DNA from: Eledone cirrhosa
Taxonomy: Eukaryota
Direction of reading: 5' to 3'
Assembly: GCA_964016885.1 (NCBI GenBank)
Contig: OZ024741.1
Coordinates: 142,290,001-142,354,000, forward strand
Length of the DNA stretch: 64,000 bases
The notes below the pieces were generated by a model. The model did no database searches. It was not told the DNA's origin and saw only the letters and a program-made list of their open reading frames with translations. The translations under genes and the position numbers were made by a program. Shown piece by piece: positions 24,559 to 28,757 of the stretch; positions within the stretch are counted from its first letter, which is position 1; each line of letters starts with the position of its first letter.

Positions 24559-24564
<6 letters not shown>

Positions 24565-27500
24565 GGAAAAAATGAAACGATATTTCATTTCCCACTCTTA
24601 GTACGGCTGTTACTTAAATATAAGTATGTACACGTACATACATATATGTATACCGACGTACAGTAGTATGTATATATATATATACATACATGCACACATA
24701 TATATATGCACGTATGGATTCACCGAACATTTATTATAATGCTCGGTGTGTTTGTAAACAAACATCCCGTATTAAGCCGTAGTGTCTAGCAACCACCGTT
24801 GCTCGTTTGTTCAACACTGACAAAGGAACGCTGTACTAGTTTCAAGCTTGTTAGCTATCGTCAGCAACGTATACCTTCCTGCCAGATTGTTGAACGTATA
24901 TACTTACCTTATGCATATTGACGGCCGAGTAGCCCAATATGCATATCGAGTGGGTTAATCGGCCGGGTGCACCGAAAACGATAAACGGAAAAAATGAAAC
25001 GATATTTCATTTCCCACTCTTAGTACGGCTGTTACTTAAATATAAGTATGTACACGTACATACATATATGTATACCGACGTACAGTAGTATGTATATATA
25101 TATATACATACATGCACACATATATATATGCACGTATGGATTCACCGAACATTTATTATAATGCTCGGTGTGTTTGTAAACAAACATCCCGTATTAAGCC
25201 GTAGTGTCTAGCAACCACCGTTGCTCGTTTGTTCAACACTGACAAAGGAACGCTGTACTAGTTTCAAGCTTGTTAGCTATCGTCAGCAACGTATACCTTC
25301 CTGCCAGATTGTTGAACGTATATACTTACCTTATGCATATTGACGGCCGAGTAGCCCAATATGCATATCGAGTGGGTTAATCGGCCGGGTGCACCGAAAA
25401 CGATAAACGGAAAAAATGAAACGATATTTCATTTCCCACTCTTAGTACGGCTGTTACTTAAATATAAGTATGTACACGTACATACATATATGTATACCGA
25501 CGTACAGTAGTATGTATATATATATATACATACATGCACACATATATATATGCACGTATGGATTCACCGAACATTTATTATAATGCTCGGTGTGTTTGTA
25601 AACAAACATCCCGTATTAAGCCGTAGTGTCTAGCAACCACCGTTGCTCGTTTGTTCAACACTGACAAAGGAACGCTGTACTAGTTTCAAGCTTGTTAGCT
25701 ATCGTCAGCAACGTATACCTTCCTGCCAGATTGTTGAACGTATATACTTACCTTATGCATATTGACGGCCGAGTAGCCCAATATGCATATCGAGTGGGTT
25801 AATCGGCCGGGTGCACCGAAAACGATAAACGGAAAAAATGAAACGATATTTCATTTCCCACTCTTAGTACGGCTGTTACTTAAATATAAGTATGTACACG
25901 TACATACATATATGTATACCGACGTACAGTAGTATGTATATATATATATACATACATGCACACATATATATATGCACGTATGGATTCACCGAACATTTAT
26001 TATAATGCTCGGTGTGTTTGTAAACAAACATCCCGTATTAAGCCGTAGTGTCTAGCAACCACCGTTGCTCGTTTGTTCAACACTGACAAAGGAACGCTGT
26101 ACTAGTTTCAAGCTTGTTAGCTATCGTCAGCAACGTATACCTTCCTGCCAGATTGTTGAACGTATATACTTACCTTATGCATATTGACGGCCGAGTAGCC
26201 CAATATGCATATCGAGTGGGTTAATCGGCCGGGTGCACCGAAAACGATAAACGGAAAAAATGAAACGATATTTCATTTCCCACTCTTAGTACGGCTGTTA
26301 CTTAAATATAAGTATGTACACGTACATACATATATGTATACCGACGTACAGTAGTATGTATATATATATATACATACATGCACACATATATATATGCACG
26401 TATGGATTCACCGAACATTTATTATAATGCTCGGTGTGTTTGTAAACAAACATCCCGTATTAAGCCGTAGTGTCTAGCAACCACCGTTGCTCGTTTGTTC
26501 AACACTGACAAAGGAACGCTGTACTAGTTTCAAGCTTGTTAGCTATCGTCAGCAACGTATACCTTCCTGCCAGATTGTTGAACGTATATACTTACCTTAT
26601 GCATATTGACGGCCGAGTAGCCCAATATGCATATCGAGTGGGTTAATCGGCCGGGTGCACCGAAAACGATAAACGGAAAAAATGAAACGATATTTCATTT
26701 CCCACTCTTAGTACGGCTGTTACTTAAATATAAGTATGTACACGTACATACATATATGTATACCGACGTACAGTAGTATGTATATATATATATACATACA
26801 TGCACACATATATATATGCACGTATGGATTCACCGAACATTTATTATAATGCTCGGTGTGTTTGTAAACAAACATCCCGTATTAAGCCGTAGTGTCTAGC
26901 AACCACCGTTGCTCGTTTGTTCAACACTGACAAAGGAACGCTGTACTAGTTTCAAGCTTGTTAGCTATCGTCAGCAACGTATACCTTCCTGCCAGATTGT
27001 TGAACGTATATACTTACCTTATGCATATTGACGGCCGAGTAGCCCAATATGCATATCGAGTGGGTTAATCGGCCGGGTGCACCGAAAACGATAAACGGAA
27101 AAAATGAAACGATATTTCATTTCCCACTCTTAGTACGGCTGTTACTTAAATATAAGTATGTACACGTACATACATATATGTATACCGACGTACAGTAGTA
27201 TGTATATATATATATACATACATGCACACATATATATATGCACGTATGGATTCACCGAACATTTATTATAATGCTCGGTGTGTTTGTAAACAAACATCCC
27301 GTATTAAGCCGTAGTGTCTAGCAACCACCGTTGCTCGTTTGTTCAACACTGACAAAGGAACGCTGTACTAGTTTCAAGCTTGTTAGCTATCGTCAGCAAC
27401 GTATACCTTCCTGCCAGATTGTTGAACGTATATACTTACCTTATGCATATTGACGGCCGAGTAGCCCAATATGCATATCGAGTGGGTTAATCGGCCGGGT

Positions 27501-28757
27501 GCACCGAAAACGATAAACGGAAAAAATGAAACGATATTTCATTTCCCACTCTTAGTACGGCTGTTACTTAAATATAAGTATGTACACGTACATACATATA
27601 TGTATACCGACGTACAGTAGTATGTATATATATATATACATACATGCACACATATATATATGCACGTATGGATTCACCGAACATTTATTATAATGCTCGG
27701 TGTGTTTGTAAACAAACATCCCGTATTAAGCCGTAGTGTCTAGCAACCACCGTTGCTCGTTTGTTCAACACTGACAAAGGAACGCTGTACTAGTTTCAAG
27801 CTTGTTAGCTATCGTCAGCAACGTATACCTTCCTGCCAGATTGTTGAACGTATATACTTACCTTATGCATATTGACGGCCGAGTAGCCCAATATGCATAT
27901 CGAGTGGGTTAATCGGCCGGGTGCACCGAAAACGATAAACGGAAAAAATGAAACGATATTTCATTTCCCACTCTTAGTACGGCTGTTACTTAAATATAAG
28001 TATGTACACGTACATACATATATGTATACCGACGTACAGTAGTATGTATATATATATATACATACATGCACACATATATATATGCACGTATGGATTCACC
28101 GAACATTTATTATAATGCTCGGTGTGTTTGTAAACAAACATCCCGTATTAAGCCGTAGTGTCTAGCAACCACCGTTGCTCGTTTGTTCAACACTGACAAA
28201 GGAACGCTGTACTAGTTTCAAGCTTGTTAGCTATCGTCAGCAACGTATACCTTCCTGCCAGATTGTTGAACGTATATACTTACCTTATGCATATTGACGG
28301 CCGAGTAGCCCAATATGCATATCGAGTGGGTTAATCGGCCGGGTGCACCGAAAACGATAAACGGAAAAAATGAAACGATATTTCATTTCCCACTCTTAGT
28401 ACGGCTGTTACTTAAATATAAGTATGTACACGTACATACATATATGTATACCGACGTACAGTAGTATGTATATATATATATACATACATGCACACATATA
28501 TATATGCACGTATGGATTCACCGAACATTTATTATAATGCTCGGTGTGTTTGTAAACAAACATCCCGTATTAAGCCGTAGTGTCTAGCAACCACCGTTGC
28601 TCGTTTGTTCAACACTGACAAAGGAACGCTGTACTAGTTTCAAGCTTGTTAGCTATCGTCAGCAACGTATACCTTCCTGCCAGATTGTTGAACGTATATA
28701 CTTACCTTATGCATATTGACGGCCGAGTAGCCCAATATGCATATCGAGTGGGTTAAT
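24559..28757 (-). mobile_element. Tandem array of ~10 x 422 bp, each unit with a hammerhead ribozyme: candidate non-LTR retrozyme
   Basis: 'aaacggaaaaaatg' at 24561, 24983, 25405, 25827, 26249, 26671, 27093, 27515, 27937 and 28359. No differences seen between units; no ORF; embedded in (TA)n. Confidence 0.85.
24823..24877 (-). ncRNA. Minimal type I hammerhead ribozyme (first of 10; repeats every 422 bp, last at 28621-28675)
   Basis: Minus strand: AAGG tat ACGTTG-CTGACGA-t AGCT aaca AGCT t-GAAA-C ta G-TA^CAGCGT t CCTT. Palindromic stem III ACTAGT; predicted cut between 24834 and 24833. Confidence 0.85.

Follow-up and report, generated by a model that had tools for sequence, protein, structure and literature searches.

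A non-coding tandem repeat family in the genome of the octopod Eledone cirrhosa inserts with the same target, polarity, tail length, and end-pairing rule as two local families of Penelope-like elements (families A and B), without sharing sequence homology with them. The family is represented by a 4,199-bp array (24559..28757) in a 64,000-nucleotide stretch of contig OZ024741.1, hereafter called the window. An earlier inspection of these letters, which we term the sequence-only reading, had proposed that the array is a retrozyme lacking long terminal repeats (LTRs), and this identity holds. The units are short, non-coding, and tandem, each has one type I hammerhead motif, and copies are dispersed in high number, which by anatomy places the family among the non-LTR retrozymes as defined in PMC7229834. 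The two fixed start sites, the optional tail, and the use of one start site per end in head-to-head insertions go beyond what had been observed earlier. The array represents a single recent insertion of a non-coding, high-copy tandem element that has a conserved hammerhead motif. The reverse transcriptase (RT)-endonuclease of local Neptune-like Penelope elements probably copies this element into (TA)n.

The array has an exact period of 422 bp and contains 9.95 copies (nine full units plus 401 bp) that are 100% identical, in keeping with the ten identical units described earlier. It also lacks coding capacity, as had been claimed, with the longest ATG-initiated frame reaching 49 amino acids (aa) on the plus strand and 51 aa on the minus strand, and the longest stop-free frame 53 aa. 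The proposed insertion inside a (TA)n tract is evident from the presence of (TA)n at both flanks. This tract is part of a local duplication, and the paralogous tract at 5270-5580 was correctly reported to be without the array. A second paralogous site, located approximately 270 kb away (locus L094), is likewise empty. The view that the array is young is supported as well. With the repeat skipped in the comparison, short read-derived contigs do not span the unique right junction of the array, and its copy number at this locus is that of the assembly only.

Dispersed genomic copies, for which the sequence-only reading had recommended a search, are abundant. The hammerhead core pattern CTGANGA-N14-GAAACTAGTA has 28,412 matches in the 3.0-Gb genome, compared to 2 for a reversed control. 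A 281-bp query returned 43 matches among the best 40 of 955 candidates, all of them 100% identical and distributed over five large contigs (C1, C2, C3, C8, and C26), and whole units identical to that of the window were recovered at other loci. The family comprises tens of thousands of units, and its insertion is no rare event. Seventy-two whole units yielded 35 distinct sequences of 418-538 nt, which form one lineage of 420-433 nt and a longer one with an expanded AT hairpin; a perfect ATGCATATTG hairpin is confined to the youngest subfamily. Among read-derived contigs of one DNA sample (three runs), which may be the sample behind the assembly, the family is present in approximately 10,000 pieces per run. 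Coverage in two sequencing runs guessed to be RNA is limited to AT-rich bits of the unit.

Three side observations concern the same units. Near-identical pieces occur at low depth in two runs labeled as other organisms (X6 and X7, with 2 differences in 320 nt and 4 in 230 nt), and might reflect relatives or carry-over. A perfect octamer, ATGCAAAT, is found in 18 of the 35 distinct units (L031-L088) about 110 nt upstream of the predicted cut site, which corresponds to approximately 24935-24945 on the minus strand of the window. In the youngest subfamily, ATGCATAT stands in its place and perfects a hairpin. Newt satellite 2 has a promoter of the small nuclear RNA type, and a literature search did not confirm a link between it and the octamer.

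Evidence on the route of mobilization comes from the ends of the insertions. The side corresponding to the RNA 3′ end falls at two points in the unit, site A (unit position 1) and site B (position 59/60), which are spaced 59 nt apart. Exact junctions with (TA)n number 3,077 at site A and 1,350 at site B, compared to 1 at an internal control site that bears its own TATATA microhomology; because junction patterns are subfamily-specific, both counts are lower bounds and their ratio has little meaning. Junctions at the two sites are imprecise by about 2 nt through AT microhomology, and loose (TA)n ends appear at the same two sites in the read-derived contigs of the DNA sample. Of the A ends, 81 of 104 have a (TA)n run within 14 bases, as do 66 of 84 B ends; among 5′ ends, this holds for only 19 of 66. 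Target-site duplications are unreadable in (TA)n targets.

The two sites are also used according to a nearly strict rule. Loci were sampled as 54 consecutive hammerhead loci, 40 selected on one end, and 20 selected on the other, together with 8 regions surrounding identical copies. Among the 120 loci of the end analysis there are 65 simple head-to-head insertions, of which 48 combine A with B, 2 are A+A, 1 is B+B, and 14 have one end elsewhere, such that 48 of the 51 with both ends at a site are mixed. The 54 loci selected on the hammerhead alone gave 15 A+B, no A+A, no B+B, and 8 with one end elsewhere. When convergent pairs were taken from coordinates in the first 103 Mb of contig C1, 13 of 13 were mixed, and one B+B pair lies beyond. 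The same 120 loci include 66 one-armed insertions (40 at A, 19 at B, and 7 at other positions), a few of which are halves of inversions split by the gap rule; 12 complex chains were left outside these classes.

Remnants of a Penelope-like element with a GIY-YIG region are indeed present upstream of the array, as the sequence-only reading stated. Its distance of about 0.5 kb must be revised, given that the GIY-YIG frame ends 827 bp upstream and the Penelope 3′ end lies approximately 430 bp away. These remnants belong to family A, for which there are 36,121 first-look candidates; most of the 150 that were scored are 95-98% identical, and several lie in frames of >1,000 aa. Open frames reach approximately 1,230 aa, and a full copy encodes 1,227 aa from the first Met, with an RT, a CX4CxxC linker, and a CCHH-type GIY-YIG domain whose Pfam match, at E 0.01 only, is under the cut-off. 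Judged by the motifs given in PMC8557442 (C-terminal GIY-YIG, CX2-5CxxC linker, CCHH, and a hammerhead in the terminal repeat), family A appears to be Neptune- or Nematis-like. Copies at different loci are up to 99.5% identical, indicating that the family is young. The best named homologue of the putative helper protein comes from Octopus vulgaris (69% identity), as would fit an octopod host. Family B has approximately 60% protein identity to family A. Both families carry minimal hammerheads of their own that differ from that of the retrozyme.

Two peculiarities of these elements may be recorded here. One helper frame (locus L106, residues ~260-440) has an Asn/Thr/His-rich low-complexity insert that recalls the N-rich inserts of rotifer Penelope elements. 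At L109:7010-7900, a family A end is followed by inverted family B-like sequence, which is possibly a chimera.

The ends of family A closely parallel those of the retrozyme. They lie in (TA)n, with 11,469 untailed and 11,055 tailed, and the optional tail measures 60 nt; in family B, the two tailed copies have a tail of 58 nt. Inverted pairs of family A are mixed, with one tailed and one untailed end, in 42 of 46 cases. An in vitro study (PMC11167929) showed that the tail corresponds to the sequence separating two start sites used internally by the RT, and termed it unique to Penelope-like elements; the study also observed that both target strands are cut and extended, and predicted a dimer. 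Reported tails are 30-40 bp long and often occur at only one end of an inverted insertion (PMC8557442, PMC3846280). Because the tail is described as unique to Penelope-like elements, these are likely to be the helpers of the retrozyme. Penelope-type mobilization, which the sequence-only reading had favored, is supported by the end signatures common to both kinds of element, and we consider it very probable.

The minus-strand hammerhead layout described earlier is readable in the unit in full: CUGACGA, a 4-bp stem II with U-U at its base, GAAA, the palindromic ACUAGU, and GUA. The general hammerhead core (CUGANGA, GAAA, and NUH with three helices) is present, with a stem III of just 2 bp and a 2-nt palindromic loop. 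Hammerheads with a short palindromic stem III are described as acting as dimers (PMC4209133). Over 31 distinct rows of 38, 94.2% of 893 cells are paired, compared to 30-43% when the partners are slid. Stem I is 96.8% paired, and one of its pairs is G-U in 14, U-G in 9, and A-U in 6 of the 31 rows. Since these changes are functional only on the minus strand, they pick out the strand of the RNA. Stem II is nearly invariant and therefore uninformative on covariation. Core positions mismatch in 9 of 576 cells, versus 540 of 11,133 elsewhere (48 loci not selected on the core). Compensatory change in stem I thus favors the assignment to the type I hammerheads, and the motif is predicted to cleave.

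Folding of the unit is consistent with a highly structured RNA. The unit is strongly self-paired (z -8.5), and without the AT hairpin its folding energy is strand-neutral (z -5.6 for the minus strand and -5.1 for the plus strand). In a predicted circular fold, pairing probabilities are 0.45-0.94 for stem I and 0.9-1.0 for stem II. Matches of the unit to Rfam microRNA models proved to be matches to the AT hairpin, far under gathering scores, and were rejected.

Several observations weigh against the account developed here. An Rfam search, proposed earlier as a check, recovered no hammerhead either at the gathering score or among 93 matches with E<=10. Where hammerheads usually have the G10.1-C11.1 pair, described as highly conserved (PMC4209133), the unit has U-U at the base of stem II. 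Covariation measures that count pairs or pair types did not exceed the shuffle control (369/500 and 311/500), with few independent events, and this control disregards the kinship of units. Folding also predicts that the CUG of the core pairs with the UAG of stem III, which would fit weak activity of the monomer. With regard to the ends, site A or site B served as the selection criterion for 60 of the 120 loci, and a few chains duplicate one another (e.g., L088 and L144). With regard to the helper, if TA repeats are set aside, the best match of the retrozyme unit to a full family A copy spans 15 nt (E 0.48), and no homology was found to the terminal repeats of families A and B, the two families compared. 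A coding parent is not apparent upstream of retrozyme 5′ ends, where Penelope coding sequence occurs in 1 of 66 flanks and no shared flank at a fixed break was seen. The helper would therefore be identified by its end geometry, in which families A and B are indistinguishable.

What the helper copies is suggested by the arms of the insertions. Among 58 arms of each kind, 37 that end at A and 45 that end at B are long enough to cross the cut site (figures biased upwards by loci selected on the hammerhead). Of 196 5′ breaks, a single one falls 3 nt or less from the cut site, compared to 3.3 expected if breaks were uniform. Because arms cross the cut site and ends do not accumulate there, a cleaved linear monomer is excluded as the template and a cleaved linear multimer is disfavored. 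A seeming accumulation of 5′ ends at position 422 of the unit was discarded as an alignment edge artefact, which is gone when the full array serves as the reference. Young insertions identical to the window unit are already multi-unit on both sides of the inversion (approximately 5 and 3.8 units at L031, and approximately 6 and 4.7 at L033/L034). Furthermore, some arrays are uniform for a variant of their own, such as one extra base in all 6 units of L035 and one change in 6 of 7 units of one L057 arm. Multi-unit young inversions and variant-uniform arrays favor a circular template, and a circle is, on present sequence comparisons, slightly the better bet. On the question whether one RNA molecule gave rise to both arms, differences in diagnostic cells are 169 of 2,698 between arms, 298 of 7,929 between tandem neighbors, and 44,072 of 180,524 between unrelated loci; L057 has different haplotypes in its two arms.

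The chief competing idea retains the same helper and replaces the circle with an uncut linear multimer that is read through from existing arrays, which would place the ribozyme and any circles off the copying path. Read-through of the cut site and the missing end pile-up fit this idea equally well. Uncut RNA is the main substrate in the sole in vitro Penelope system, from anole, where ribozyme mutants were without effect on insertion (PMC11167929), and of 9 retrozyme dimers predicted in Xenopus, just one showed cleavage in vitro (bioRxiv 10.64898/2026.07.22.740005). Set against this are the core, which is the most conserved part across subfamilies, and the covarying stem I, both of which point to selection on the ribozyme. 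The variant-uniform arrays would require a step from monomer to multimer, and no 5′ end site that might mark a transcript start stands out besides the alignment artefact at the TA tract. We regard an uncut multimer as less likely than not. Perhaps instead only short copies are retrotransposed and long arrays grow by tandem amplification at the DNA level, as modeled in bioRxiv 10.64898/2026.07.22.740005. The array at L143 alternates two unit types (ABAB) and looks DNA-expanded, in that its later dimers are near-identical while the first differs; like the preference for uncut RNA, this speaks against a circle. However, the youngest insertions are already multi-unit in both arms, and both paralogous sites of the window array are empty. 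Amplification may add to some arrays, including 24559..28757, but it leaves the ends unexplained and is unlikely as a general account. The ABAB arrays themselves (L143:311-4499 and L083:2784-4720) could reflect either DNA-level expansion of dimers or copying of a dimeric circle.

Other enzymes might be invoked in place of a Penelope-like protein. Frames of long interspersed nuclear elements (LINEs) are abundant in the window, LINE-1 inversions arise via twin priming, and Helitron derivatives form tandem arrays. Nevertheless, both fixed ends of the retrozyme share the same polarity and its other end is variable, unlike in a DNA transposon. Poly(A) is absent, the second start site keeps a fixed position, and the Penelope families have a matching tail length and pairing rule, which makes a LINE or Helitron-like helper very improbable. 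That the array is an assembly artefact, or that hammerhead-like words arose by chance in a satellite, is scarcely credible. The perfect identity of the units, an assembly-only copy number, and the negative Rfam result could be cited in its favor, but it is refuted for the family by thousands of dispersed copies with distinct junctions, by the ~10,000 contigs per run of the DNA sample, and by covariation.

Under the preferred circular-template reading, tandem units would be transcribed from the minus strand, their hammerheads would cut, probably as dimers via the palindromic stem III, and a host ligase would close 422-nt circles. A Penelope protein dimer would then bind the RNA and nick both (TA)n strands. 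One active site would prime at site A and the other at site B, and each would read through the ribozyme junction for a variable distance. If both complementary DNAs were retained, they would be joined head to head; otherwise, a one-armed, 5′-truncated array like that at 24559..28757 would result. In its boldest form, which we put forward tentatively and would not call probable, this proposal states that a viroid-sized circular RNA unrelated to its helper colonized the octopod genome approximately 28,000 times through a geometry that imitates the start region of Penelope elements. Each subunit of the dimer would begin on its own nicked strand, at points separated by 59 nt, and both would roll around the circle to write multi-unit head-to-head arrays in a single step.

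The window contains other members of this family and several additional features (Table 1). The older inverted copies at 24145-24407 and 5017-5278 and the fragment at 57917-58068 were unmentioned in the sequence-only reading. Retrozyme copies often lie in a (TA)n tract directly at a Penelope 3′ end (window 24130-24145 and loci L085 and L087), which is expected from their shared (TA)n target. A second repeat type with inverted arms of ~100 bp stands beside retrozyme pieces at three loci (window 57380-57830 and the L036 and L038 flanks). Five matches resembling transfer RNA (tRNA), at 3715-3826, 7261-7372, 18396-18507, 22796-22907, and 30710-30821, are located in the local duplication. Three of them, as aligned, carry 39 additional nt in the anticodon loop, and the matches might be tRNA genes with introns or repeats derived from tRNAs. 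Long LINE frames with RT motifs are present at 38273-41858, 44181-47470, 48814-52035, and 52327-55877, one of which is stop-free for 1,073 aa.

Table 1. Retrozyme, Penelope, and target-site features of the window
Feature	Position	Strand	Basis
Young retrozyme insertion, 9.95 identical 422-bp units	24559..28757	- (predicted RNA strand = minus)	Periodicity; 100% matches over 281 bp and whole identical units elsewhere in genome
59-nt tail between distal start site A (24559, joined to (TA)n, used here) and proximal site B (24617/24618)	24559..24617	-	Junction counts
5′-truncated insertion end (unit position 401) passing into remaining (TA)n target	28757..28777	.	Sequence, paralogue comparison
(TA)n target tract	24367..24561	.	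Sequence
Putative type I hammerhead in the first unit: stem I (6 bp), CUGACGA, stem II (4 bp, U-U at base), GAAA, ACUAGU, GUA; predicted cut 24834/24833; recurs every 422 bp	24828..24870	-	Motif reading, pairing analysis
Extended stem I closing predicted multibranched unit fold	24809..24895	-	Folding
Family A Penelope element (Neptune-like), 5′-truncated, with GIY-YIG region and 3′ repeat; its end in (TA)n has no tail; candidate helper family member	23337..24130	+	Sequence comparison with genomic copies
Minimal hammerhead motif of the Penelope element, sequence unlike that of the retrozyme	23928..23972	+	Sequence reading; same motif in full-length copy
Older head-to-head copy of retrozyme family, 85-91% identical; site A terminates the left arm and site B the right	24145..24407	.	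Sequence comparison
Paralogue of older head-to-head copy, adjoining empty (TA)n tract	5017..5278	.	Sequence comparison
Hammerhead-bearing family fragment, 88.8% identical	57917..58068	+	Sequence comparison

The helper enzyme and the RNA template of animal retrozymes are called open in PMC7229834 and bioRxiv 10.64898/2026.07.22.740005. The Penelope-specific tail, of the same unusual length as in the local Penelope elements, provides sequence evidence for a helper that is independent of homology. This end signature is the most valuable result, in that it makes a direct experiment of a long-held guess. A young candidate helper with long open frames and a 422-nt substrate form a ready test pair for the in vitro assay that already exists. 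In addition, the near-strict rule of one tailed and one untailed end, which was counted in parasite and helper alike, limits the ways in which Penelope proteins can employ their two start sites.

The kind of element described here is known, and the retrozyme family itself appears to be new. A literature search, with subscription papers, repeat databases, and the supplement of PMC7229834 outside its scope, found no report of a cephalopod retrozyme or of retrozyme tails. The metazoan non-LTR retrozymes of coral, mussel, and axolotl (PMC7229834) are alike in their non-coding tandem units of a few hundred bp, each self-paired and with one type I hammerhead, and in their thousands of copies. The axolotl motif HHR_Amex2 even shares the U-U at the base of stem II and a 2-bp stem III, and its monomer cleaved to 22% and its dimer better. 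In contrast, units are ~170-400 nt there and 422-540 here, and cleavage and circles were demonstrated there, whereas here they are predicted. Penelope-like elements were proposed as helpers in that work, as strong candidates, and the portions of it covered here do not describe a tail or fixed start sites.

Vertebrate retrozymes viewed as Penelope derivatives (bioRxiv 10.64898/2026.07.22.740005) are similar in that tandem hammerhead repeats co-occur with Penelope-like elements. That study, in which no molluscs were sampled, reports this co-occurrence along with terminal-repeat homology in Xenopus, where 24 of 57 families match known elements, and suggests local DNA amplification while leaving the mechanism open. 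In E. cirrhosa, by comparison, the retrozyme has an insertion signature in common with its helper candidates and no homology to families A and B. The Chlamys non-autonomous elements such as MRC1 (PMC8557442) resemble it as non-autonomous, Penelope-type, multicopy head-to-tail insertions, but as a rule their 3′ sequence is also that of autonomous families, and canonical hammerheads are absent from most Chlamys elements. The closest parallel is the tail system of Penelope-like elements themselves (PMC11167929, PMC8557442, PMC3846280), with its two internal start sites, an optional tail that is often one-ended in inversions, AT-rich or (TA)n targets, and both tandem and inverted structures. It differs in that tails there are 30-40 bp and those here 58-61, and in that the carrier here is non-coding and not homologous to its candidate helper.

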